From an uncultured Clostridia bacterium (GTDB taxonomy: Bacteria; Bacillota; Clostridia; Christensenellales; UBA1242): a stretch of DNA of 64,000 nt. The translations under genes were made by a program, and so were the position numbers. The first letter of the stretch is position 1, and each line of letters opens with the position of its first letter. The notes under the pieces are model-generated. The model was not told where the DNA came from. It saw nothing but the letters and a program-made list of their open reading frames with translations, and searched no databases. Positions 5,447 through 23,773 of this stretch are shown here, one piece after another. The DNA lies in the NCBI GenBank assembly GCA_944380265.1, contig CALWGY010000001.1:3790-67789 (forward strand), written 5' to 3'.

Positions 5447-5829
5447 TTTTTCTTGGTTATCAAATGATTAATTCCTGCAATATCGTTAACTGGCATGCTA
5501 AAACACAAACCTTTGCCTTCTTCGTTTAAGTTTGCATTTTCGCAAATTGCTTTCATAATTTCTTTGCGTTTGTTTCTGTAAACCAAAATAAGCAACACTT
5601 CTTTTTCAGGTTGCAACTTAACACCCAAAATCGAATCGGTTTCGTGCACGCCTGTTCCTCTGCCATAAATAATTGTGCCACCAGATGCACCTGCTTGTCT
5701 TGCAGCGTCAACAACAAAATCGGAAAAACCTTTGTTAACAACAACAACAATTAAATCAAATTCTTTGTTTTTGCGTTTTTCAATTTCTTTATTAACTTGT
5801 TTAACTTTGTCATAATTAATTTTTGCCAT
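5443..5829 (-). CDS. P-II-like signal transduction protein (second of pair)
   Basis: I prefer the start at MAKINYDK, which follows RBS GAGGTG. The core LIVVVVNKGFSDFVVDAARQAGASGGTIIYGRGTG...EKEVLLILV resembles the P-II ferredoxin-like fold with a T-loop-like GRGTG. Confidence 0.6.
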   Translation of the reverse strand: MAKINYDKVKQVNKEIEKRKNKEFDLIVVVVNKGFSDFVVDAARQAGASGGTIIYGRGTGVHETDSILGVKLQPEKEVLLILVYRNKRKEIMKAICENANLNEEGKGLCFSMPVNDIAGINHLITKKK

Positions 5830-6178: not shown

Positions 6179-7701
6179 TCTTCTCCCAAATCAAATTCAA
6201 CAATTTCAATTGGTTTTTTAATTTTTCGCTTAGTTTTTCCGGATTTTTTAATGGAAATATACTTATAAATTATTCCAATAATCAAAATTATTAAAATTGG
6301 TAAACTTGCAATAAATGCAACTGTTCCAAACACATCAGAAATAATGTTTGCATTGCAAGCTTTTGCAACTCCTAAAATTAAAGGGAAAATAAAACTTGAT
6401 GCCATTGTTCCCGAAGCAACCCCACCACTATCAAACGCAATTGCTGTAAATATTGAAGGACAAAAAATTGACAAAATAATGCATAAAATATAAATTGGTA
6501 AAATTAAATAAATGTAATCAATTTTATAAATTACTCTTAAAATTGCAAGAACCAAACTTAAACTAACACCAATACCAATTGCAATCATCATAACATTTTT
6601 GCTAATTATTCCATTTGTTATTTCTTCAACTCTTTTGTTTAAAACATGAACAGCAGGTTCTGCAAATGCAGAAAATAAACCAACAATTAATGATATTGGA
6701 ATTATTAACCAATTGTGATTCGATGACATAATGTTAAAACCAAGAACGCTTGCAATAGGATAAAAACCTGTTAAAACTCCTGTTAAAAATAAAACAATAC
6801 CCAAATAGGAGTAAACCAAACCAACAATAATTTTTAAAATTTGAATTTTTGGAAATTTTAAGTATATTGCATTATACACAAAAAAGAAAACAATAATTGG
6901 CAAAATAACAACCAAAATTGCCAAAACATTTTCTAAAAATTCAACTCCAAATTCACTAAACATAAGGCTTGCCGAACCAGTTTGTGTTTCAGTTATAACA
7001 GTTTGCGAGTAACTTGCATCATTTCCAGCAAAAATACAAAGTAAAAGAGTTGTAATAAGTGGGCCAACACTAGTTAAGGAAATTAGTCCAAAACCATCAT
7101 TATCGTGTTCACCACCACTTCTAACTGCACTAATACCAACACCAAAAGCCAAAATAAATGGTACCGAAATCGGCCCTGTGGTAATAGCTCCAGAATCAAT
7201 TGAAATAGGCAAATATCCACTAGGAACAATAAACATTAATGCAAAAACAATCAAATATGAAATAATTAGAACAGTTTTAATTTTTATTTGGAAAATAATG
7301 CGTAAAACTGCAAGCATTAAAAAAATTCCAACCCCAAGCGCAACAATAAAAATAAACAACCATTTGTTGATTGAGGCAATTTGTTCTGCCAAAACTGATA
7401 AGTCTGGTTCGGCAATTGTAATAACAAGTCCAAGTAAAAAACTAAAAACAAGCAATGTTGCAAGTTTTCTAGATTTACTTAAATTGCTTCCAATGCTAGA
7501 GCCCATTGTGTGCATTGCACTTTCAGCACCAACAGTGAAAAGTGGCATACCAATAATAAGGAGTAGTGCGGAAATTAAAAATTTAATTATGTCATAAGAA
7601 GAAAGGGGTGAAATTGTTAACCCTAAAATTAACACAATTAAAACAATTGGAATTATTGAAATAACACTTTCTTTTAATTTACTTAAAATATTTTTAGCCA
7701 A
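6175..7701 (-). CDS. DUF1538 family polytopic membrane protein
   Basis: 508 aa and very hydrophobic. It has two internal halves, each carrying an AEP motif (ITIAEPDLSVLAEQI and FSAFAEPAVHVLNKRV). The family name is from memory. Confidence 0.6.
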   Translation of the reverse strand: MAKNILSKLKESVISIIPIVLIVLILGLTISPLSSYDIIKFLISALLLIIGMPLFTVGAESAMHTMGSSIGSNLSKSRKLATLLVFSFLLGLVITIAEPDLSVLAEQIASINKWLFIFIVALGVGIFLMLAVLRIIFQIKIKTVLIISYLIVFALMFIVPSGYLPISIDSGAITTGPISVPFILAFGVGISAVRSGGEHDNDGFGLISLTSVGPLITTLLLCIFAGNDASYSQTVITETQTGSASLMFSEFGVEFLENVLAILVVILPIIVFFFVYNAIYLKFPKIQILKIIVGLVYSYLGIVLFLTGVLTGFYPIASVLGFNIMSSNHNWLIIPISLIVGLFSAFAEPAVHVLNKRVEEITNGIISKNVMMIAIGIGVSLSLVLAILRVIYKIDYIYLILPIYILCIILSIFCPSIFTAIAFDSGGVASGTMASSFIFPLILGVAKACNANIISDVFGTVAFIASLPILIILIIGIIYKYISIKKSGKTKRKIKKPIEIVEFDLGEE

Positions 7702-7916
7702 TATTTTTCCCTAAAGTTATAAAATTACAAATATATTTTAAATAATATATTTTTTTAAGTCAAACAATAATTTGCTAAATAATGATGTGTAAACATGCAC
7801 ATATGTTAAAAATTGTTTGCACATGTGGGCATGTGTTAAAACAAATGTTATTATTAATTAACAATTTGATTGATTTACATTGTGCCAATTTGTTAAAATA
7901 ATCTTAGGTGAAAATT

Positions 7917-10322: not shown

Positions 10323-11419
10323 AAAAACTTACAATTTTTATGTTAATACTTATTTGTTTGTGTTTGGCAGTTCCAAACATAAACACTGTTTATGCAACAG
10401 ATGGAAACAAAGACGAAATGTTTGTTGTTTACACTTCCGATGGCGAAAAGTTGTTTGAACGAAGCGATGTTAAAGTTAACGATAATTACATAACAAAAAA
10501 TTTTGAAATGTATGAAGTTGTTAGTGTTGATGAAAACACCAAAACTGCAAAAGCAGAATTTGTTAAAACTTTAAAAAAGCCGAATGTTAGTGTTAATCCA
10601 AATCCAAGCCAAATTTCTTTAACAGACAAAAAAATATGTTTGTACTTAACACATAATGATGAAAGTTATGTTCCAACCGATGGCTACGATAGCATTTATG
10701 GTGCAGGCGGAATTCATGATGTTGCAAAAGCATTAAAAAACAGTTTTGAACTTTTGGGAATAAACACAACATTAAACGAAACATTGCACATTCCGCACAA
10801 CAGTTCGGCTTATTCCAGAAGCGAAGTTACCGCAAAAGAGTTGCTAAAAACCAATCCTGATGCACTTTTCGATATTCACCGAGATGGTGTTAGCAGACAA
10901 TATTATGTAACAGAAGTTGATGGAAAGGAACGTTGCAAAGTTAGAATTGTGGTTGGGCAAGCAAATCCGAATAAGGAACAAAATTTGGAATTTGCATTGT
11001 ATTTAATGAGTGTGGCTGAAAACATGTATCCTTGGTTGTTTGCCGACATATATTATGCGTCAGGTCACTACAATCAGGCGCTATATAACAAAATGCTTTT
11101 GTTTGAAATGGGAACATACCTTGTTGAAAAGGAAATGGTGTTCGACAGTGTTCATCCACTTGCGGAAGTTATTAACACAGCACTTTACAACACAACTGTT
11201 GATTCTGGAACAGGAGACATAACAATTGGTGGAAACGATGATCCAGAAGATCCAACAATTAATGACCATTTTAACAACTTGCAAAATAAAACTAACAAAC
11301 GAACCGTTATTTCATTAATAATAATTGGTGTGTCGGTGGTTGTTGTGGCTGTTGCAAGTGTGCTACTAGTTGTTAAAACAAAAGATAAACCAAAAAAATC
11401 AAAATCAAACAAAAAATAA
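10319..11419 (+). CDS. spoIIP: stage II sporulation protein P
   Basis: LYLTHNDESYVPTDGYDSIYGAGGIHDVAKAL and DIHRDG motifs, with an N-terminal signal-like segment. Confidence 0.8.
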   Translation: MKKLTIFMLILICLCLAVPNINTVYATDGNKDEMFVVYTSDGEKLFERSDVKVNDNYITKNFEMYEVVSVDENTKTAKAEFVKTLKKPNVSVNPNPSQISLTDKKICLYLTHNDESYVPTDGYDSIYGAGGIHDVAKALKNSFELLGINTTLNETLHIPHNSSAYSRSEVTAKELLKTNPDALFDIHRDGVSRQYYVTEVDGKERCKVRIVVGQANPNKEQNLEFALYLMSVAENMYPWLFADIYYASGHYNQALYNKMLLFEMGTYLVEKEMVFDSVHPLAEVINTALYNTTVDSGTGDITIGGNDDPEDPTINDHFNNLQNKTNKRTVISLIIIGVSVVVVAVASVLLVVKTKDKPKKSKSNKK

Positions 11420-11525
11420 TTCGAGAATGTTTAAAGGCTAATAAAACTCAAAAAATTATAAAAACTAAAAAAACTTTAAAAAATATAAACATAAATAATT
11501 TGAAAAAAATATATTTATCAAAAAA

Positions 11526-11557
11526 ACAAAAGCAATTTTGTTGCTTTTGTTTTTTTT
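11526..11557 (+). terminator. rho-independent terminator after spoIIP
   Basis: ACAAAAGCAA pairs perfectly with TTGCTTTTGT (10 bp), followed by TTTTTTT. Confidence 0.7.
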
Positions 11558-11737
11558 GTAATAGCATTATAAATTGTTTAATGCCATTTAAGTTTTTAAA
11601 ATTTACAATTTATATATATTTAATAAATTTTATATTACATAATTAATTTATATTATTAAAGTTGCTTAAAAAACTAAAAAAATGTACAATAATATTTGTA
11701 ATAAATAATATGTTTAAAACATTCTAAGGAGTATTAT

Positions 11738-13063
11738 TTGGAAAAACCACTTGTTGCAGTTGTTGGCAGACCTAATGTTGGCAAAAGCACATTTTTTAAT
11801 AGAATTGCGGGCAAAAAAATAAGCATTGTTAAAGATATGCCGGGTGTAACACGTGACCGCATTTATGCTGATGCCGAATGGTGTGGGCATGCTTTCACAA
11901 TTGTTGACACTGGCGGATTAGATGTTAAAAACAAAGATGATTTCCAAAAAAACATAACCAGGCAAGCCGAACTTGCATGCGAAGTTGCCGATGTTGTGTT
12001 ATTGTTTGTTGATGGAAAAGAAGGTTTGCTTCCTGCCGATTATGATGCAGCAAACTTTTTAAGAAAATATAAAGTACCAATCATTTTGGTTGTTAACAAA
12101 ATTGATAATAACGAACTTGAAAAAACTTATGAGTTTTACAACTTAGGGTTGGGCGAACCAATTGCCATTTCTGCCGAACTTAACAAAGGCATTGGCGATT
12201 TATTAGATGCAATTGTTTCCAAATTTAAAGTTAAAGTTGATTCCGATGCAGACAAAAACAAAATAAAAATTGCAATTGTTGGAAAACCCAATGCTGGAAA
12301 AAGCAGTTTGGTTAACAAATTGCTTGGCGAAAACCGAGTTATGGTTTCTTCCGTTGCAGGCACCACACGTGATGCCATTGACACACCATTTAAGTATAAC
12401 GGAAAAGAATATTTGTTAATTGACACTGCTGGAATTAGAAGAAAACGTAGCATAGATAAAGATTCTGTTGAGCTTTACAGCGTTATTCGTTCTTTTGATG
12501 CAATTAGGCGAGCAGATGTTGTTGTTTTGGTGGTTGACAGCGTGGAAGGGCTTAGCGAACAAGATGTTAGAATTGCAGGCTTTATTCATGAAGAAGGAAA
12601 GCCAAGTGTTATTTTAATGAACAAATGGGACGTGGTTGAAAAAGACACCTATTCTATGAACAAATTTAATGAAAAATTAAATGAAGATTTAAAGTTTATG
12701 GATTACTTTGTTGCTTTGTATGGCAGTGCTTTAACAGGTTTAAGAATTAACAAATTAATGGAAAATGTTAATTTGGTTCTAGAAAATGCAAGCAAACGAA
12801 TAACAACAGGTGTTTTAAATGATATTTTGCAAAATGCTGTTTTAACAAACGAACCACCAACAAAAAATGGAAGAAGACTAAAAATTTATTACATCACTCA
12901 ACCTTCAACAAATCCTCCAACATTTGTGCTTTTTGTTAATGACAAGGATTTAATGCATTTTTCATATTTAAGATATTTAGAAAATTGCATTAGAAATGCC
13001 GTTGATTTTAAAGGAACACCAATCAATTTGTTGGTTAATAGTAAAAAAGAAAAGGACGTATAA
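11738..13063 (+). CDS. der: ribosome-associated GTPase Der (EngA)
   Basis: Two GTPase domains (GRPNVGKST and GKPNAGKSS) followed by a KH-like C-terminus. TTG start after RBS AAGGAG. Confidence 0.92.
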   Translation: MEKPLVAVVGRPNVGKSTFFNRIAGKKISIVKDMPGVTRDRIYADAEWCGHAFTIVDTGGLDVKNKDDFQKNITRQAELACEVADVVLLFVDGKEGLLPADYDAANFLRKYKVPIILVVNKIDNNELEKTYEFYNLGLGEPIAISAELNKGIGDLLDAIVSKFKVKVDSDADKNKIKIAIVGKPNAGKSSLVNKLLGENRVMVSSVAGTTRDAIDTPFKYNGKEYLLIDTAGIRRKRSIDKDSVELYSVIRSFDAIRRADVVVLVVDSVEGLSEQDVRIAGFIHEEGKPSVILMNKWDVVEKDTYSMNKFNEKLNEDLKFMDYFVALYGSALTGLRINKLMENVNLVLENASKRITTGVLNDILQNAVLTNEPPTKNGRRLKIYYITQPSTNPPTFVLFVNDKDLMHFSYLRYLENCIRNAVDFKGTPINLLVNSKKEKDV

Positions 13064-13066
13064 TAT

Positions 13067-13906
13067 ATGTTAATCACTGTGCTTAAATATGTAGGATTAA
13101 TAATTATTTCATATTTGTTGGGTAGCATAATTTTTGGAAGGTTGCTATCCAAACTACAAAAAGATGACATAACAAAACATGGAAGTGGAAATCCTGGAAC
13201 AACCAACATGCTTAGAAACTATGGTGTTATGTATGGGCTTTTAACATTTGTGCTAGATGCATTAAAGGGTGTTGCGGCTGCATTAATTGGATACTTTATG
13301 TTTGGCGGTGCAGATGGCGGAGTTGTTGCACGTGCAGCCATTTACATTGGTGGTGTTAGTGCAGTAATTGGTCACATGTTTCCAATATTCTTTAAGTTTA
13401 AGGGCGGAAAAGGTGTTGCAACAGCATCTGGAATTGCATTTGTTGCACATCCAATTGTTGGAGCAATCTTGTTTGTAGTTTACATTGTGTTATTGTTACT
13501 AATAAGAATTGGCAGTGTTTGCAGTTTGATTGTTGCACTTGCTTATGCCATAACCGACACTGTTATGTTAATTATGGAACAAAACTATGTTGGGCTTGGA
13601 CTATTATATTTTGTAATATTATTAATTATTTGGGCACACAGAGAAAACATTAAAAGGTTACTTAACAAAAAAGAAAATGTACTTGACTTAAATGAAGTAG
13701 TGCAAAAAGACATAGACAGGTTTAATGCTTTAAAAAATAAAAAGAAAAACAAAAACAGCCAGGTTGAATTAAAAGAAGAACAAAATGAAATTGAAACAAA
13801 CAAAGTTACTGTAACTGAAACTAAACAAGTTGCAAATGATGAAGATAACAAACCTAATAATAATGAAAACGATAAAACAAATAATAACAAAAATGAAAAT
13901 AAATAA
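13067..13906 (+). CDS. plsY: glycerol-3-phosphate acyltransferase PlsY with a Lys/Asn/Glu-rich C-terminal extension
   Basis: GSGNPGTTN and FKGGKGVAT motifs. The final ~80 aa are low complexity. Confidence 0.85.
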   Translation: MLITVLKYVGLIIISYLLGSIIFGRLLSKLQKDDITKHGSGNPGTTNMLRNYGVMYGLLTFVLDALKGVAAALIGYFMFGGADGGVVARAAIYIGGVSAVIGHMFPIFFKFKGGKGVATASGIAFVAHPIVGAILFVVYIVLLLLIRIGSVCSLIVALAYAITDTVMLIMEQNYVGLGLLYFVILLIIWAHRENIKRLLNKKENVLDLNEVVQKDIDRFNALKNKKKNKNSQVELKEEQNEIETNKVTVTETKQVANDEDNKPNNNENDKTNNNKNENK

Positions 13907-17722: not shown

Positions 17723-17878
17723 AAAATCACCTCACGTTTTTTTTAATTATATCAAACTTTTACATTTTTAAAAATCATATTAGAATACTAATTTAATTTA
17801 ATAAAAAAGTTTTTTTATGTTATACTTATTCTAGTTAAAGTAAAACATTACTTTCTGTTTAATTATTAGTATTAATTT

Positions 17879-17965
17879 TAATCTGAATTTTTAATTTTAA
17901 ATTATTTAATTTTATTTAATCAATTAATCTGAATTTTTAATTTTAAATTATTTAATTTTATTTAA
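17879..17965. repeat. perfect 41-bp direct repeat x2 (5-bp spacer) in a promoter region
   Basis: TAATCTGAATTTTTAATTTTAAATTATTTAATTTTATTTAA occurs at 17879-17919 and again at 17925-17965. Confidence 0.9.
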
Positions 17966-17979
17966 CCAAAAGGTGAAAC

Positions 17980-18657
17980 ATGAACGTTAATGATGTTAGA
18001 TATCAAAATCAAGGATTGCATGTTGTTCTTGCATTGTTCACTGTAACAAATGGCCAATTTAAGGTTTTGTTAATAAAAAGGAAAAATGAACCATTTAAAA
18101 ACAAATGGATTTTGGTTGGCGGTTGTGCCTACAACACCGAAACTGGCGAGCAAGCAATGAAACGTGAACTTTTTGAAAAAACCAAAATCACAGATGTTGA
18201 TTTTCAAATGTTTAATGTTTTCACAAATCCAAATCGTTCGCCACTAAAACGAATGATTGCAATTGGATATTTTGGTGTTAGCGATTCATCTATAATTGAA
18301 AAATTTAAGCAAACTGAAAAGGCTTCGGATGCTGAATGGTTTGAAATTGATAAAGTGCCAGAACTTGGCTATGACCACAAAGAAATTTTGGATGAGGCAA
18401 TTGAGCATTTGAAAAATAGCATATTTAAAACAAATATAATGCGAAAACTTTACCCAAACTATTTCACATTGCCAGAACTTCAAGAAACATATGAAACCAT
18501 TTTGCAAGTTTCGTTGGATAGAAGAAATTTTAGAAAAAAATTATTAAATGAGGGGCTTATTGTTGAAACCGATAAAACAATTAAACGTGGCAACTCAAAG
18601 CCAAGCAAACTTTACAAATTTTCATCTGTTAGCACAACATTTAATTTTTATAAGTAA
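17980..18657 (+). CDS. Nudix hydrolase fused to a winged-helix domain (NrtR-like regulator)
   Basis: Nudix box region GGCAYNTETGEQAMKRELFEKT, with a C-terminal LDRRNFRKKLLNEGLIVET wHTH-like segment. Confidence 0.6.
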   Translation: MNVNDVRYQNQGLHVVLALFTVTNGQFKVLLIKRKNEPFKNKWILVGGCAYNTETGEQAMKRELFEKTKITDVDFQMFNVFTNPNRSPLKRMIAIGYFGVSDSSIIEKFKQTEKASDAEWFEIDKVPELGYDHKEILDEAIEHLKNSIFKTNIMRKLYPNYFTLPELQETYETILQVSLDRRNFRKKLLNEGLIVETDKTIKRGNSKPSKLYKFSSVSTTFNFYK

Positions 18658-18776
18658 CAAAAAGAATGTTTTTGTAACAATTTAAAAAAAATGTTTACAA
18701 TATTTTTGTGATTTATGTTTATATGTGATAAGCTTTAATGGTTAAACAAAAGTAGAGTTTAAAGAGGATTTATTTT

Positions 18777-19598
18777 ATGTACGAAACTGAGCATATTTTA
18801 TACATTGTTTTTTCTTTATTATTTGTTTCTGTTTTATTATTTGGCGCACATTTTATTAAAAGCCAAAAATATAAAAATTTATTTTTGCTAATTTGGGCGT
18901 TTTTGTGTTTTTTCATGCATATTTCAACAATGTACACAACATTTTTTATGCAAAACGGGGTTGGTAATGCTTACGACAATCAATTGTTCCCAATTTATTT
19001 CTGCAACTATATGATGTATTTGTTGCTAGCAACCAGTTTGTGGGCAAACAAGGAAACAAAATTTTTTAAAATAATGGCAACATTTGTGGCTTATGGCGGA
19101 ACCTTTGGTGCACTTATAACTTTGTTTGTAACACCACCAGGATTTAGTAGTTGGTTTAATTTGCAATCAGCATTTTCACACACCTGTTTGTTAATTGGCA
19201 GTTTGTGGTTGTTTGTTGGTGGTTATGTTAAAATTAATGTTTTCAATGTTGTTCCATATGCATACGGGCTTTTAAGTTGCGGAGTTGTTGGTGGAATTGT
19301 TGAACTAATTTTCTATTTGGGTGGATTACCTAGTCCAAATGCAATGTATTTGGTTCATGGACCTGTGGAACTACCAGAATTTAAGTGGTGGATGTTTGCA
19401 ATTGTTATGTTATTATTAATTTTCATATTCACCATAATTTGGGAACATTTCACACGCAAAAAAGAAGATAGATGGTTTAAAACCAGCAAAGATTTGTTTA
19501 TGTATTTGCCAACAAGAAAAGTAAAAAATATAACCACAACCCAAACAACCCAAGAAAGTTTGGATGAGAGCACAGAACAAAAAAATAGCGCGGAATAG
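18777..19598 (+). CDS. polytopic membrane protein (possibly YwaF/TIGR02206-like)
   Basis: 273 aa with about 7 hydrophobic segments. The family guess is weak. Confidence 0.45.
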   Translation: MYETEHILYIVFSLLFVSVLLFGAHFIKSQKYKNLFLLIWAFLCFFMHISTMYTTFFMQNGVGNAYDNQLFPIYFCNYMMYLLLATSLWANKETKFFKIMATFVAYGGTFGALITLFVTPPGFSSWFNLQSAFSHTCLLIGSLWLFVGGYVKINVFNVVPYAYGLLSCGVVGGIVELIFYLGGLPSPNAMYLVHGPVELPEFKWWMFAIVMLLLIFIFTIIWEHFTRKKEDRWFKTSKDLFMYLPTRKVKNITTTQTTQESLDESTEQKNSAE

Positions 19599-19632
19599 TT
19601 TTATTGTTATTTAAACTTCAAAATTGTTAAAA

Positions 19633-19666
19633 ACTGCATGATACTAAATGTATTATGCAGTTTTAT
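19633..19666 (+). terminator. rho-independent terminator
   Basis: ACTGCATGATAC pairs with GTATTATGCAGT (one G-U pair), followed by TTTT. Confidence 0.6.
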
Positions 19667-19796
19667 CTTTTAAGCGAAAGTTTGCTTTTAAATCTTTTGT
19701 TTAAAGGTTTTAATATTGAAAAGTTTTTATATATTTCTTTTTATTACAAATTTGATGTGATACAAAAAATTGTGATATAATATTATGGGAGTGATT

Positions 19797-20327
19797 ATGA
19801 GTAAATTAACATTAGTTGTGCCACAAATTAAGGATTTGTGGTTTAAAAAAGAAATAAAAGAAGACCCACACACAATGGACTATAATGCAGGGTATGATTT
19901 AAGTTTTAATGGATATAATCGTGAAGATGGAACCATTCAAACAGACATAACAGAACTAAGGGAAGTTTGGTCTAAAAAATGGATTGGAAATGAGCCATCA
20001 AATTTTTATTATTACATAAAAGATGGTAACACTTTTATTGGCGAAATTTACGCAAAGTTTGATAGCAACAAAAATTCATATGAAATTGGCATTGTTATTA
20101 AAGGCGAGCATAGGGGGAAGGGTTATGCAACACCTGCAATTAAATTGCTTTGTGAAAAAATGAAGGAGTATGGAGTTAAAAATTTATATCACAAACTTCC
20201 TGTTTCCAGAAAAGGAGCAGTTAAAGCCGATTTAAACAATGGCTTTGTTGTTGTGAAAGAAAACATTGATGGTATGAAAAAGTTTGGCAAAGTTGAAAAA
20301 TTAGTGTATTTAGAAAAAACATTATAA
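19797..20327 (+). CDS. GNAT family N-acetyltransferase
   Basis: I prefer the ATG at 19797, which follows RBS GGGAG. IGIVIKGEHRGKGYATPAIKLLCE is an acetyl-CoA-binding motif. Confidence 0.7.
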   Translation: MSKLTLVVPQIKDLWFKKEIKEDPHTMDYNAGYDLSFNGYNREDGTIQTDITELREVWSKKWIGNEPSNFYYYIKDGNTFIGEIYAKFDSNKNSYEIGIVIKGEHRGKGYATPAIKLLCEKMKEYGVKNLYHKLPVSRKGAVKADLNNGFVVVKENIDGMKKFGKVEKLVYLEKTL

Positions 20328-20348
20328 GCAAAACATGAAATTAAAAAT

Positions 20349-20372
20349 ACCCAAAACATTTTGGGTGTTTTT
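20349..20372 (+). terminator. rho-independent terminator
   Basis: ACCCAAAA pairs with TTTTGGGT, followed by GTTTTT. Confidence 0.6.
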
Positions 20373-20504
20373 GTTTTTAGGAACACAAATTTGTTTTGTT
20401 AACACAACTTTTTATGTTTTACATTAAAACATGTTTCTATTAACCTAAAAACAATCAAGAAATAAAAACTTAAAAAGTAATTGTTATTATATATTTTTAA
20501 GTTG

Positions 20505-20540
20505 GTACCCATAAAAGTACCCACAAAAGTACCCATAAAA
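20505..20540. repeat. tandem 12-mer x3 (GTACCCAYAAAA)
   Basis: GTACCCATAAAA GTACCCACAAAA GTACCCATAAAA read directly from the sequence. Confidence 0.9.
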
Positions 20541-20610
20541 ACTAATAAAAAATAAATATTTTTTAACAAATTTGAAAAATGTTCAAAAAACAAAAAAATA
20601 CCTAAATTTA

Positions 20611-20666
20611 GGGATTTGACGTGGTGGACCACCAGAAACTCGAACCCTGGACCCACTGATTAAGAG
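20611..20666 (-). repeat. left att-like direct repeat: orphan tRNA-Lys 3' half plus 11 nt of downstream sequence
   Basis: 53 of 56 nt are identical to 23687-23742. It covers the tRNA from the anticodon loop to CCA but has no 5' half. Confidence 0.85.
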
Positions 20667-20915
20667 GTACATTTGGGACTTCTTTCTTAATGCCTTTTTA
20701 TACCAACTAATACCCTTAAATCCCTTATTTTCTCTACCAAAATCGTGTTATTCAAGTTTATCTCTTAACCTATAAATTTGTCTAAAATCATTTCAGTTTT
20801 TGCAGTTTTCTTTTAGACAGTTATAAAAACAATTTATTAATAGTGTTTTATACTCTTATTTGTTTGATTTTTTTGATATATTATTATAAAATAAAATTAA
20901 CATTTGGAGGATGAT

Positions 20916-21353
20916 ATGCAAAATTCACATACCACCCCACTTCTTAGAAATGACTTAAAAGAATTTTTAATTAGGTTAGGTAAGATTTTTTCTAACATTT
21001 CAATATTAGCTCTATTATTGTGTTTTAGCGGAATTCTATCTTTTGCTGCAACTGCTTTTATTTTGCTTATAGGTTTTGTTGTCATTATTTTATCTATTGG
21101 GACCATATTTATCATTGTTCCTAATTATTTTGATATATTAATGTCAACATCTCAAGTATCTGCAAAGATTTCTGCTTTCTTTTTAGAAAATTTTTATATA
21201 TTTGCTTCAATTGCCATTGTAGGAGCAGTTCTTTCTTTGATTCTGTTACTTTTAGATAAGAGAAATAAACATATCGCTCGAATAGTGATTTCTTCGGTTG
21301 TAATTGCAATTGTGATTATTGCTATAATAGTTGTTGCAACGGAGGTGATATAA
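20916..21353 (+). CDS. islet membrane protein 1 (about 4 TM)
   Basis: The ATG at 20916 lies 5 nt after GGAGG. It has hydrophobic segments, and its stop overlaps the next start (TAATG). Confidence 0.6.
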   Translation: MQNSHTTPLLRNDLKEFLIRLGKIFSNISILALLLCFSGILSFAATAFILLIGFVVIILSIGTIFIIVPNYFDILMSTSQVSAKISAFFLENFYIFASIAIVGAVLSLILLLLDKRNKHIARIVISSVVIAIVIIAIIVVATEVI

Positions 21354-21862
21354 TGAATTCGGTGAAATTAAAATTGGTTGGAATCAATTCAAAACTTATT
21401 CCTAATATTTTTATTGATGACCAATATGTAAAATGTAAGAAAAACGAATTTGGCTCTTACGAAACAGATTTTCAAACAGAAAAAGATGAAATTAAAATAG
21501 CTTTTTCAAGAGAGTTAGAGTTGAAATCTAAACTCTGGTGGTTATATGCAATATTATCATTTATAGTAAGTGTTTTCGGAATTTTTAACCCACCTTATGA
21601 TAGAAAATGTATTTCAATGGATTGTTCTTTTATAGTTAAATTAAAAGATGTAAATAATATTAATATAAAATTTAATTCCTTATCTTCAAGTGGCAGAGCT
21701 GTTGAAGTAGAAACGGAAACAAGTTTTGAAGAAATAAAAAATGAATATACAGTTGATAAAATAGCTAAAAGAAGATGGATAATACTGCTCATAGCCAGAA
21801 TTTTGGCTTGGATAGGAATTGCTATTTTATTAGGTTGGCTAATTGCAAATCAAATTGGTTAG
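21353..21862 (+). CDS. islet membrane protein 2 (2 TM)
   Basis: RBS GGAGGTG upstream. TM segments LWWLYAILSFIVSVFGIF and WIILLIARILAWIGIAILLGWLI. Confidence 0.6.
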   Translation: MNSVKLKLVGINSKLIPNIFIDDQYVKCKKNEFGSYETDFQTEKDEIKIAFSRELELKSKLWWLYAILSFIVSVFGIFNPPYDRKCISMDCSFIVKLKDVNNINIKFNSLSSSGRAVEVETETSFEEIKNEYTVDKIAKRRWIILLIARILAWIGIAILLGWLIANQIG

Positions 21863-21872
21863 GGAGGGATTT

Positions 21873-22358
21873 ATGAAAGTATATATAAAGAACAAATTTT
21901 GGTCTATTGGTGGAGGTTCATCGGTTGTAAACGAAAACAAAGAAGATGTTTTTAAGGTAAAAGGTCGTGCATTTAGCATAACTCGTGTAAAATATGTTTG
22001 CGACTTAGAAGGGAACAGACTTTTTAAGATTAGAAATAAATGGTTTAATTGGTTTATTCATAAAGCATATATTTATGACGCAAATAAAAATAAGATTGCC
22101 ACAGTGAAAGACAAATGGTTTAATGTAAATCAAGAATATTTTGTTATGGGTTATAAAGACGAAATTAAAATTCAAGGAAAATTTTTTGGTTTAACAACTC
22201 AAATTCTAAAAAATGGTGAAGTTATCGGAACAATAAGAAGACAAATTGCTTTTATCAATGACGCCTTTGAACTTGAAGCGAATGAACAAGACATGCCTTT
22301 CTTAATTGCTCTTGTTATAGCAATAGATAATATAACAGATAAAAAACATAAATCATAA
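21873..22358 (+). CDS. LURP-one-related / DUF567 (tubby-scramblase-like fold) protein
   Basis: The ATG at 21873 follows RBS GGGAGGG. MKVYIKNKFWSIGGGSSVVNENKEDVFKVKGRAFSI...ILKNGEVIGTIRRQ matches the DUF567 pattern as I remember it. Confidence 0.6.
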   Translation: MKVYIKNKFWSIGGGSSVVNENKEDVFKVKGRAFSITRVKYVCDLEGNRLFKIRNKWFNWFIHKAYIYDANKNKIATVKDKWFNVNQEYFVMGYKDEIKIQGKFFGLTTQILKNGEVIGTIRRQIAFINDAFELEANEQDMPFLIALVIAIDNITDKKHKS

Positions 22359-22367
22359 GGAGTTATT

Positions 22368-23390
22368 ATGAAAAAGAAAATTTTAAGTTTTTGTCTAGCA
22401 TTTGCTCTTATGATTCCTGCAATATTTTTGCTCTCTGCTTGTGGTGGTGACAATGACACACCTAAAAAAGATAGGACAAACACTGCTAAAATAGTTAGTG
22501 TTTATCAAGATTATCAAGCAAGCCTTTATGTCGAAATGACAGGATTTAAACACGACGAATATGAACTTACTGGATCTTCTCGTAATAACTTAACTCTTGA
22601 ATTTTCAATAAATAATGGAGAATGGTTTGAATGTTATCCTGTACAAGATTTTTATGATGAAAGTGGCAAGGGTGTTTATCAAATACTAAATGCCACATAT
22701 AACTATAGAGATAGTGAAGTTAGTTCTTTCACAACAATGATGACAGCTCAAAAAGTAGAGCCGGGAGAAATTTCTATATCTGCTCGTATTCCAGAATCAA
22801 ACACATACAACGCAAGTGCAGGCACATCTCCTACCCCCTACACATTAAAATCAAAAATTCAAACAATTGATGATAAGATAGGTGCGGGAGTTTATGCATT
22901 TGGTTCTGTAATAGCGTCAAGTGCCCCTGAAGAAGAAAAATTTGTTTTTTATCAAGATTCTTTAGATCCATATGACTTAAAAGTAGGAAGAGTTTATTCA
23001 CAAAAAAATGAAAGCGGTGAAAGTCTTGGTTATGACATTTTTGTAAGAGAATTAACAGAAGATGAAAAAACTGAATTTTCTGCATTAAATCTTGAATATA
23101 AAGTTTTGAATTATACTTCAAAATATATAACAACTGTCGAAGGCAGTGAAGATGAATATATAGACACTATGGAAATAACTAATGATGAAAATGATGCTAT
23201 TTATTCCACAAAAGGCTGGACAGATAGTTTATTAAGTTTAAGTGAAAGAAATCTTTGGACTTATACAAATGATGGAGTTAAATACGAAAATGTGATTTTC
23301 CTCGTAAGGCTAAAAGCTACTGATGATACTGTTCAATCAGAAGCTTTGTGTTTTGAAGTTTCTATTGATACTGAAGAAATAACACAATAA
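22368..23390 (+). CDS. islet lipoprotein, unknown function
   Basis: Signal peptide with lipobox LLSAC (MKKKILSFCLAFALMIPAIFLLSACGG). RBS AAGGAG upstream. Confidence 0.7.
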   Translation: MKKKILSFCLAFALMIPAIFLLSACGGDNDTPKKDRTNTAKIVSVYQDYQASLYVEMTGFKHDEYELTGSSRNNLTLEFSINNGEWFECYPVQDFYDESGKGVYQILNATYNYRDSEVSSFTTMMTAQKVEPGEISISARIPESNTYNASAGTSPTPYTLKSKIQTIDDKIGAGVYAFGSVIASSAPEEEKFVFYQDSLDPYDLKVGRVYSQKNESGESLGYDIFVRELTEDEKTEFSALNLEYKVLNYTSKYITTVEGSEDEYIDTMEITNDENDAIYSTKGWTDSLLSLSERNLWTYTNDGVKYENVIFLVRLKATDDTVQSEALCFEVSIDTEEITQ

Positions 23391-23452
23391 AACATAAAGT
23401 CAAAAAACTCTTTGAAATTTTGGGGTTCACCCCATTTTAAGATGTAAAAAAT

Positions 23453-23486
23453 GACTGGGAATTAGTGATAATTCTCAGTCTTTTTT
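23453..23486 (+). terminator. rho-independent terminator of the islet operon
   Basis: GACTGGGAATTA pairs with TAATTCTCAGTC (12 bp, one G-U pair), followed by TTTTTT. Confidence 0.75.
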
Positions 23487-23664
23487 ATGCAATTTTTTCA
23501 AAAATTTTTAGACAATTTTTTAGACAGTGGCAATTTTTAAGTAAAATTCGATGTTTTTATGCAATGTGAAATATTAAAATTTTACATACAAAAATGACAT
23601 TTTTTTAACACTTTTTACAAAAATTTTAGACAATTTTGGGCTAAAATTTATATGCTTAGATATT

Positions 23665-23691
23665 AAAAAAATCCCTTATATTATAAGGGAT
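23665..23691 (-). terminator. terminator downstream of tRNA-Lys
   Basis: Palindrome ATCCCTTATA / TATAAGGGAT, followed on the minus strand by a T-run. Confidence 0.6.
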
Positions 23692-23742
23692 TTAACGTGG
23701 TGGACCACCAGGGACTCGAACCCTGGACCCACTGATTAAGAG
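23687..23742 (-). repeat. right att-like direct repeat (inside the intact tRNA-Lys)
   Basis: Partner of 20611-20666. Confidence 0.85.
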
Positions 23743-23773
23743 TCAGTTGCTCTACCAACTGAGCTAGTGGTCC
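23698..23773 (-). tRNA. tRNA-Lys (anticodon CUU), CCA encoded
   Basis: The reverse complement is GGACCACTAGCTCAGTTGGTAGAGCAACTGACTCTTAATCAGTGGGTCCAGGGTTCGAGTCCCTGGTGGTCCACCA. It folds as a 76-nt cloverleaf with a 7-bp acceptor stem, anticodon loop CTCTTAA and T-loop TTCGAGT. Confidence 0.9.

Follow-up and report, generated by a model that had tools for sequence, protein, structure and literature searches.

Why does a compact block of four genes in a 64,000-nucleotide stretch from an uncultured Clostridia bacterium (contig CALWGY010000001.1; hereafter the window) lie between an intact tRNA-Lys(CTT) gene and a second copy of the 3' end of that gene, with no integrase among its genes? An initial annotation had described this block, here called the islet (~20667-23742), as a possible cis-mobilisable element. 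Our analysis led to the same reading, to which we assign a probability of about 0.8: the islet is a decayed derivative of an integrative mobilisable element (IME), i.e. a cis-mobilisable element (CIME), defined as an element without integration and transfer genes that keeps attL and attR (PMC5704250). It has this structure, with both attachment sites kept and the integration and transfer genes lost. The attachment sites are seen as a 57-nt tRNA repeat, an empty site joined at the repeat and the same boundaries in six hosts; the loss as the lack of any integrase, Xis, relaxase or replication domain in the islet; and the descent from an IME or an integrative and conjugative element (ICE) in nested integrase remnants of related islets, a vestige in the window and a related element (contig L040) with MobL, HTH_17 and integrase genes. 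Beside these stand tandem arrays on two contigs (L005 and L020), recent spread between hosts and presence/absence polymorphism, indirect signs that the islet may be excised or passed on after a cognate element has integrated next to it. The features of the locus are collected in Table 1.

The attachment sites and the empty site

The single tRNA gene of the window, tRNA-Lys(CTT), was called by ARAGORN with Rfam concurring at 23698-23773 on the minus strand, where the initial annotation had placed it. A repeat search of the window returned a direct repeat of 57 nt (20610-20666 and 23686-23742, 54/57 identical, 95%), corresponding to the tRNA-derived repeat first read as 56 bp with 53 identities. 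It is the second-largest repeat family of the region and has its longest repeat unit; the inner 28-mer occurs exactly twice in the 64 kb, against 0 expected from 100 shuffles, and no degenerate further copies were detected in the window above shuffle level. The repeat consists of the last 45 nt of tRNA-Lys (23698-23742, from the CCA end to the full 7-nt anticodon loop CTCTTAA) and 12 nt of downstream sequence, and its boundary falls exactly at the 5' edge of the anticodon loop, directly after ...GATTAAGAG. Attachment sites that extend from the anticodon loop to CCA have been described as a class (bioRxiv 10.1101/2020.11.02.365908), and the repeat spans exactly this interval plus a few downstream bases. 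Of the intact gene, the 3' half (23698-23742, the attR core) thus lies inside the element, and 23743-23773 is the 5' half belonging to the host.

The unoccupied form of the site, in which the initial annotation had expected dut to abut the GNAT gene, was found in a conspecific contig of 243 kb (L055), the dUTPase of which falls into the 90% cluster of that of the window. Here the GNAT gene, the native terminator, the intact tRNA-Lys and dut follow one another with nothing between them. The contig matches the window from 18665 to 20666 and from 23665 onward, with flanks that are 95-97% identical at the nucleotide level, as in other conspecific contigs. In it the left flank of the window, up to and including 20666, continues directly with 23743 and what follows; the join falls exactly at the anticodon loop, where recombination between the two repeats would place it. 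The left copy of the window differs from the attB of L055 by three substitutions, of which one lies in the terminator hairpin and two lie in the T stem (GGG>GAA); a tRNA half that has been displaced and has no function would be expected to decay in this way. A terminator-like hairpin had been noted in the left copy; a hairpin (CCTAAATTTAGG) is indeed present at the native terminator site, but it is a weak one that the terminator scan did not call. Its counterpart at the empty site (AAATCCCTAAATTTAGGGATTT) is a better hairpin, indicating that the window copy has decayed. The comparison with L055 identifies the left repeat as the displaced native 3' half of tRNA-Lys with its native terminator, and not as an unrelated degraded tRNA. 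Another contig (L056) starts exactly at the att boundary.

In each of six hosts the loop marks the exact end of the left copy, and the same arm of the element comes next. The left tRNA copy is of the host type in every host and is preceded by a host-specific terminator in each; on the other side, a hairpin similar to the terminator at 23669-23697 occupies the same position in all hosts. These boundaries bear on the possibility that the left repeat is what remains of a second, tandem tRNA-Lys gene degraded in place, with four ordinary chromosomal genes beside it and no integration. Neighbourhoods of this sort exist, since the lipoprotein gene is located between two tRNAs in L001 and L003 (tRNA-Gln or tRNA-Asn, and tRNA-Lys) and L013 has two tRNA-Lys(CTT) genes. 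In-place degradation, however, does not fit an empty site in which left copy and tRNA 5' half meet precisely at the anticodon loop, a copy that ends at the loop with the same arm next to it in six hosts, unrelated flanks outside the repeats in different hosts, or integrase remnants adjoining the right arm, and we consider it extremely improbable.

In one related contig (L022), a sequence at 5740-5770, immediately ahead of the left tRNA fragment, contains the anticodon arm of tRNA-Lys in inverted orientation (CTGACTCTTAATCAG); it may be the scar of another recombination event.

Remnants of an integrase and a relative with mobility genes

Pfam searches revealed no integrase, excisionase, relaxase or replication domain in the four open reading frames (ORFs) of the islet, and tblastn with a related integrase gave no match anywhere in the window. 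The earlier statement that no integrase lies between the repeats holds for these ORFs; it does not hold for the DNA behind them, where about 14 nt of an integrase 3' end and the associated terminator survive (23434-23480). An IME would carry its own integrase, with or without Xis, together with a relaxase or oriT, whereas here these ~14 nt are what is left of the integrase gene. The integrase fragments of related islets end in ...KDFEM and a stop codon at the position of this vestige, and the terminator at 23453-23480 is conserved downstream of the integrase remnants in L020, L006, L024 and L044. The cargo operon had been described as ending in a terminator, and it is this element that the terminator scan called.

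The remnants in the relatives form a nested series, starting at about residue 101 in L042 and L044, 132 in L024, 192 in L020 (where the gene is also frameshifted) and 272 in L006. In L024 the remnant is a 195-aa ORF adjoining the right arm, in which the tyrosine-recombinase motifs HxxR and Y are present and a coiled-coil tail runs to KDFEM and the stop. We considered and rejected this ORF as a functional mini-recombinase, as it begins after the Arg-I motif (GFRRSE in P0130, a related integrase of 340 aa) and is without the core-binding domain. Between the lipoprotein gene and the integrase remnant of L006 there are two ORFs (6597-7846) that, judged by their N-terminal sequence, we take to be parts of an IS3-family transposase.

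A related element of 7.9 kb (L040, 4385-12236; also found on L041) adjoins tRNA-Lys with the same arm architecture and encodes a Mrr-like nuclease, a MobL relaxase, an Xis-like HTH_17 protein, an integrase split by a frameshift and an HNH protein. The integrase is 75% identical to the remnants in the relatives of the islet and consists of a 103-aa piece, with weak matches to Arm-DNA-binding and SAM-like domains, followed by a 340-aa piece. A short contig (P0151) reads through the frameshift site, indicating that relatives with an uninterrupted integrase exist. At its left junction the L040 element keeps only GATTAAGAG of the tRNA, followed by arm-like sequence. Integrase remnants in the relatives, together with one related element that has a relaxase, an Xis-like helix-turn-helix protein and an integrase, bear out the footprint of integration into a tRNA 3' end that the initial annotation had described.

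All five TTTTAGACA nonamers of the window fall within the arms of the islet, and their arrangement is repeated in L020, L022, L024, L042, L044, L045 and L005; from their placement, these repeats are candidate arm-type binding sites for the integrase or Xis. The left arm also contains a promoter-like site (20864-20892), and the right arm of the window is a mosaic of L044-like and L020-like blocks. GC content does not set the islet (28.4%) apart from its flanks (29.5-29.9%).

On this basis the ancestor of the islet would have resembled the L040 element, in which cargo is combined with a MobL relaxase, the Xis-like HTH_17 protein and an integrase whose N-terminus is of the arm-binding kind. This ancestor would have inserted by a tyrosine-recombinase exchange within the repeat, with the TTTTAGACA repeats as arm-type sites, and later deletions would have removed the mobility genes.

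Other contents were observed at the same site. Right of a 45-nt tRNA-Lys fragment, L009 has a bAvd-like gene and a reverse transcriptase (11234-13533), a pair of the type found in diversity-generating retroelements (DGRs), which is another type of cargo at the same hotspot. L010 (1184-6334) carries an XRE/CI-like repressor, then a tRNA-Lys fragment, then further genes, suggesting that the lipoprotein islet and the tRNA have been separated by the insertion of a prophage or another element. From their N-terminal sequences the genes past this fragment presumably encode a ParB-like nuclease/methylase and a radical-SAM-like protein.

The same islet in diverged hosts

To recover relatives, genomes were scanned with the lipoprotein and metagenomes with a 22-mer of the left arm, and gene contexts were looked up. 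The islet was found at tRNA-Lys(CTT) in other uncultured Clostridia/Christensenellales contigs with the same arms (~230 nt left, ~250 nt right). Similarity between hosts starts abruptly at ...GATTAAGAG and runs through the left arm, the cargo and the right arm to the tRNA, and the outer flanks are unrelated: HisS/ASCH and glycosyltransferase genes in L020, DegV and MetRS genes in L042 and L044, and an SPFH gene in L025.

Between hosts the DNA of the islet is 93-100% identical, with stretches of ~450 nt that are 100% identical, one of them in I2, broken by patches of 72-76%. At the protein level, I2 (the second cargo gene) is 99-100%, I3 92-96% and I1 87-92% identical. The hosts have in common the syntenic order tRNA-Lys ... 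Alr ... RsmD, and here Alr is 33-35% and RsmD 38-48% identical (window against L006, L013, L042 and L044); Era, YbeY and RecO are 41-58% identical (window against L003 and L009). The high identity of the islet against core proteins at 33-48% shows that horizontal transfer was recent, and the islet is mosaic and much younger than the divergence of its hosts.

Tandem arrays of related elements are present in L005 and L020. In L005 (6828-9546) two tRNA-Lys fragments lie 2.7 kb apart, each followed by a left arm of the same type with an inverted TTTTAGACA-like pair, and the two enclose an ABC-transporter gene; the left arm is the same and the cargo another, and the arrangement is a tandem accretion of two elements of the family. 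In L006 and L023 a 172-aa membrane protein replaces I1-I3.

The exact I2 protein was found on 327 contigs, compared with 117 for the exact dUTPase of the same window, and its synonymous divergence between hosts is ~0.01-0.03, against 0.2-0.5 for the neighbouring I1 and I3. These values suggest a very recent sweep of the segment 21400-21850. Among annotated genomes, Candidatus Onthoplasma faecipullorum (Christensenellales) has a protein identical to I2; because I2 is common to several hosts, this match points to a clade and not to a species. The genus Onthoplasma has been placed in family UBA1242, gut bacteria with genomes below 1 Mb (PMC12306168), and the hosts of the islet probably belong to this reduced-genome UBA1242/Onthoplasma group.

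Three conserved cargo proteins and a hypervariable lipoprotein

Between the repeat copies lie four plus-strand ORFs with short or overlapping junctions, at the coordinates given by the initial annotation. I1, a small membrane protein, had no match in Pfam, PHROG, NCBIfam or PADLOC. The I1-I2 pair is kept at 26-28% identity in L058, with a different gene next to it. The uncharacterised family of I2 comprises 303 clusters at 50% identity, and all its members are ~165-172 aa long; no Pfam, NCBIfam or PHROG family was found for I2, and the family profile had no relative in Pfam or the PDB. The protein matches PADLOC PDC-M37A at 19.4 bits (E 1.5e-4), a weak match that serves as a lead only, and the other cargo proteins had no meaningful match, so that none of the cargo is assigned to a known anti-phage defence system by PADLOC. 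The predicted structure of I2 is poor (predicted local distance difference test score, pLDDT, 60.5), with a shallow alignment.

I3, the cytoplasmic member of the operon, is the only one of the four with a Pfam match. It exceeds the thresholds of both LOR/DUF567 (PF04525; 48.5 bits with a cutoff of 24.5, 1e-12, profile positions 27-186 of 187) and Tubby_C_like (PF23728; 31.4 bits with a cutoff of 24.4, 2e-7), in agreement with its first description as a LOR/DUF567 tubby-like protein. Its direct similarity to the LOR protein At5g01750 of Arabidopsis (PDB 1ZXU) is insignificant (E 0.64). A search of the DUF567 literature yielded nothing on bacterial function, the two apparent matches being to DUF5677 or without a mention in the text, and we know of no bacterial LOR/DUF567 member with a demonstrated biochemical function.

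In L016-L018, from other Christensenellales, the same four genes occur as an ordinary chromosomal operon that lacks att sites and has a longer lipoprotein, indicating that the module is older than its capture by the element. The ratio of nonsynonymous to synonymous divergence (dN/dS) is 0.04-0.15 for I3 and 0.2-0.3 for I1; for I2 it is ~0.1 in divergent pairs (0.08-0.15), and the pair with L020 gives 1.5 at a dS of 0.01.

I4 is the 340-aa lipoprotein with lipobox LLSAC recognised at first reading. Its N-terminus (MKKKILSFCLAFALMIPAIFLLSAC) contains a lipobox of the form [LVI][ASTVI][GAS]C, and Cys25, the predicted site of lipidation, is invariant in 31 homologues. An AlphaFold2 model (pLDDT 82.6) consists of tandem beta-sandwiches with an N-terminal helix (residues 5-23). 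The dN/dS of I4 is 0.9-1.5 between islets and reaches 3.7 between the window and a conspecific (dN 0.044, dS 0.012). Variation occurs in patches with two or three alternative alleles that are reshuffled between strains, and in L020, in which I1-I3 are 91-96% identical to those of the window, the lipoprotein is only 32-40% identical. No phase-variation repeats and no DGR target were detected for I4. DGR mutagenesis was considered as a source of this hypervariability, as the bAvd and reverse transcriptase genes of L009 adjoin the lipoprotein gene, and was rejected: there is no pair of template and variable repeats there, and no reverse transcriptase in the window.

The lipoprotein raised the question of whether the islet is the degraded end of a prophage, with I4 as a lysogenic-conversion or superinfection-exclusion gene comparable to ltp of Streptococcus phage TP-J34. 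In L001/L007 the lipoprotein gene comes after a prophage lysis module (terminase, P22-type portal, holin), in L044 the integrase remnant comes directly after it, phage-like genes lie past the tRNA fragment of L010, and diversifying selection on the lipoprotein would suit such a role. Yet a tRNA-Gln separates the L001 prophage from the lipoprotein gene, so that the phage probably ends there, and the sole relative with mobility genes has a MobL relaxase and not phage genes. The search for the cargo in phages that the initial annotation had proposed gave no homologue: none was found for I2 or the lipoprotein in IMG/VR, for the LOR protein in GenBank phages, or for the left arm in IMG/VR, and no PHROG match was better than E 1e-3. 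The islet thus lacks what would mark a prophage, by PHROG and by the phage collections searched with its arms and with I2, I3 and I4, and a prophage origin is improbable. In L001/L007 (1-9687) the prophage ends at the tRNA-Gln just left of a solitary lipoprotein gene and tRNA-Lys; L003 and L009 have a tRNA-Asn in the equivalent place.

As for its role, the cargo may, tentatively, be a cell-envelope module in which the exposed lipoprotein forms the interface with an antagonist or partner, such as a phage, host immunity or a partner cell. An interface of this kind, which would be under antagonistic or frequency-dependent selection, would explain diversifying selection on the lipoprotein while I1-I3 stay conserved. 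The main rival to this reading is an envelope-stress or bacteriocin-immunity module, in which the LOR protein and its membrane partners protect the membrane and the lipoprotein is accessory. We take YxjI of B. subtilis to be a LOR-family protein, and yxjJ presumably encodes a small membrane protein. The two genes are co-transcribed and belong to the core sigma-W regulon of envelope stress and antimicrobial resistance (PMC3498285), which favours membrane protection, as do the conservation of the I1-I2 pair far beyond the lipoprotein and the dispensability of the lipoprotein in some strains. This role is nevertheless rather unlikely, as neither I1 nor I2 has a sequence link to known immunity proteins, the LOR gene is itself broken in one strain, and the lipoprotein dN/dS above 1 and the mosaic alleles are left unexplained.

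Is the islet still exchanged?

Beyond its identity as a CIME, the broadest reading of the locus is that minimal integrase-less cassettes are still exchanged at tRNA-Lys(CTT) among family-level-divergent, reduced-genome gut Christensenellales, borrowing integrases, moving by a replacement route that keeps the tRNA host-matched, and delivering an undescribed envelope module with a positively selected lipoprotein interface. Taken as a whole this is possible but doubtful, and a number of observations weigh against integration, continued exchange or the role given to the cargo. Both repeat copies are of the host type in each host, including the element-side copy that completes the functional tRNA, which is not what simple integration of a foreign attP predicts. 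No functional cognate integrase was found in any islet-bearing contig or in the window, the integrase of L040 is frameshifted in two independent assemblies, and no circular or attP junction was observed. Within the species of the window the islet is present in 10 of 11 conspecific contigs, in the same place and with an identity similar to that of the flanks, so that its inheritance here appears to be mostly vertical; the one empty site might represent the ancestral state and not a product of excision. On the side of the cargo, the phage and viral collections named above hold no homologue of I2, I3 or I4, the I4 model matches only generic FN3/Ig sandwiches in the PDB and BFVD and nothing informative, its dN/dS near 1 in some pairs could reflect relaxed constraint, and in some strains the lipoprotein gene or the LOR gene has been lost or disrupted.

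Several of these points also suit an inert fossil, which would have spread while its integrase was intact, lost the integrase independently in each lineage and be immobile now, with L055 as the ancestral state. Such a history would account for an integrase that is truncated, frameshifted or absent in all observed copies, for the collinear islet in 10 of 11 conspecific contigs and for the three substitutions in the displaced tRNA half relative to attB. It is less easily reconciled with stretches of 100% nucleotide identity between hosts with 33-48% core identity, which imply transfers later than the differing truncations, or with truncation points that differ between near-identical islets. Conservation extends to both arms and to their arrays of motifs, for which there is no user in cis; assembly breaks fall within the islet or right at att in several cases; and the three left-arm variants and differing decay of the left fragment within one species point to repeated events at the locus. 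A fossil is a minority reading that we keep in view.

The within-species data are as follows. All ten places listed for the exact dUTPase of the window carry the islet between GNAT and dut. Among conspecifics it can be broken or trimmed (the lipoprotein gene is deleted in L049 and I3 frameshifted in L047), and there are three left-arm (P-arm) starts, differing decay of the left fragment and differing right hairpins. Five of ten conspecific contigs terminate inside the islet, as is expected of a sequence common to co-occurring genomes.

If exchange has continued, how would the element-side tRNA half have remained host-matched? Each host has its own tRNA-Lys(CTT) sequence, with differences in the acceptor and anticodon stems. 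There are two left-arm variants, and each is common to hosts with different tRNA sequences right up to a conserved 10-nt loop segment, so that the left junction must have been made by site-specific recombination; homologous recombination alone, considered as an explanation of the identity between hosts, is ruled out at this junction by the same variants. On the right, L042 and L044, from the same host species, have hairpin and tRNA in common and differ in their arms (TTAGGCA against TTAGACA motifs) and in their integrase remnants (73% against 94% identical to the L024 fragment). The host-matched half found in every host points to a replacement mechanism and not to simple integration. We infer a model that fits these features, in which an incoming element would integrate in tandem at attL, and homologous recombination between the two right arms or integrase remnants would then delete the middle. 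These events would leave the left junction sharp and the right arm chimeric, produce nested truncations of the integrase and preserve the resident tRNA half that is adapted to the host, so that tandem integration followed by recombination would explain the sharp left junctions, the mosaic right arms and the nested truncations together. The present copies may have spread by this route or, alternatively, with the help of an integrase that a related element resident in the same genome provides in trans, a route of tandem accretion and cis-mobilisation. It is from population patterns in the sequences that we infer mobilisation in trans.

Table 1. Features of the tRNA-Lys(CTT) locus in the window
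Feature	Position	Strand	Evidence or remark
Native (host) tRNA-Lys terminator, split from its gene and decayed (AAAAAAATACCTAAATTTAGGGATTTGACG)	20594..20621	-	Same position and sequence in the empty-site contig L055 except TCCC>TACC in hairpin
attL core, displaced 3' 45 nt of tRNA-Lys(CTT), CCA end through anticodon loop	20622..20666	-	Direct repeat
Left (P) arm with inverted TTTTAGACA pair and operon promoter region	20667..20900	+	96-100% conserved between hosts; homology begins abruptly at the anticodon-loop boundary
Two TTTTAGACA motifs, 20779-20787 (-) and 20811-20819 (+)	20779..20819	.	Inverted pair in left arm
I1, 145-aa membrane protein, ~4 transmembrane segments, no known family	20916..21353	+	ORF, hydropathy
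I2, 169 aa, 2 transmembrane segments (~59-79, 140-166), beta-rich soluble parts	21353..21862	+	ORF, hydropathy
I3, 161-aa LOR/DUF567 protein (tubby C-terminal-like), no transmembrane segment	21873..22358	+	Pfam
I4, 340-aa lipoprotein, lipobox LLSAC, Cys25	22368..23390	+	ORF; all-beta tandem Ig/FN3-like fold, hypervariable
Vestige of last codons and stop of a tyrosine integrase gene (ATTTTAAGATGTAA; GATTTTGAAATGTAA in relatives)	23434..23447	+	Alignments
Former integrase terminator, now ending the cargo operon	23453..23480	+	Terminator scan
Right (P') arm, TTTTAGACA at 23506, 23518 and 23624 and a mutated fourth site (TTTTTAACA) at 23602-23610	23481..23668	+	Alignments
Terminator now serving the intact tRNA (AAATCCCTTATAATATAAGGGATTT, then T run), element side of attR	23669..23697	-	Terminator scan
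Intact tRNA-Lys(CTT)	23698..23773	-	ARAGORN, Rfam; identical to the tRNA of the empty-site allele

The region left of the islet

Further differences between conspecifics were found outside the islet. The gene for an NrtR-like Nudix regulator (17849-18665) is absent from L055, and a TMEM164-like gene (18738-19514) is absent from L045 and L046; this presence/absence polymorphism marks the whole stretch left of tRNA-Lys as a variable region. The GNAT gene (19785-20327) is 84-85% identical to genes of L006 and L023, contigs whose core proteins are 35-48% identical to those of the window, and it, too, appears to have been gained horizontally, perhaps on an older islet as cargo. No older att site or degenerate tRNA fragment above shuffle level was found left of the islet around GNAT, and an exact-protein look-up of the GNAT and lipoprotein sequences of the window returned no identical record. 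Between GNAT and attL there are three tandem copies of the 12-mer GTACCCAYAAAA (20505-20540), of which L055 has two.

Significance and comparison with known systems

CIMEs are already known as a kind, and the islet adds a member from an uncultured gut lineage. A three-step model has been described in which an IME or ICE integrates, decays to an element with attL and attR only, and accretes further elements (PMC5704250). The tRNA-Lys(CTT) locus offers a natural series of this decay and accretion, with an empty site, an occupied site, tandem arrays, a relative with mobility genes and graded integrase deletions, in a lineage with very small genomes. It goes beyond the textbook case in three respects, namely near-identical integrase-less copies in hosts with 33-48% core-protein identity, the host-matched tRNA half inside the element, and the coupling of three conserved proteins lacking a functional annotation (a LOR/DUF567 protein and a widespread membrane pair) to a lipoprotein with a dN/dS of up to 3.7. 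If the cargo is an envelope defence or partner-interface module, it would open a first way into the function of bacterial LOR proteins and of the I1-I2 family.

Among variable or exclusion lipoproteins, I4 resembles Ltp of phage TP-J34, Llp of T5 and the Vlp/Vsp proteins of Mycoplasma in its lipobox, its location on a mobile element by the integrase gene, its patchwork alleles and a dN/dS of at least 1. It differs from them in having no sequence or fold relation beyond generic Ig/FN3 sandwiches and neither phase-variation repeats nor a DGR target, and we take the likeness as a functional analogy and not as confirmed membership. Compared with other islands integrating into tRNA genes at the anticodon loop, the islet stands apart by an element-side tRNA half that is host-matched in every host, which is unusual for a recently transferred island. 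IMEs with a tyrosine integrase and a relaxase, such as IME_Sag2603_tRNAlys and the L040 element, use the same target gene, and L040 also has the arm architecture of the islet with TTAGACA repeats, whereas the islet of the window is without integrase, Xis and relaxase. The closest parallels are the streptococcal CIMEs (CIME19258 and CIME302 of S. thermophilus and the tRNA-Lys(CTT) CIMEs of S. agalactiae), which likewise keep attL and attR, have lost integrase and transfer genes, form tandem arrays with related elements and occupy the 3' end of tRNA-Lys(CTT). Cis-mobilisation has been demonstrated experimentally for the streptococcal elements, whereas the islet is a candidate for it by its structure. 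Unlike them, the islet resides in uncultured low-GC Christensenellales, is bounded by a 57-nt repeat that extends to the anticodon loop, and occurs as near-identical copies across hosts with core proteins that are only 33-48% identical.

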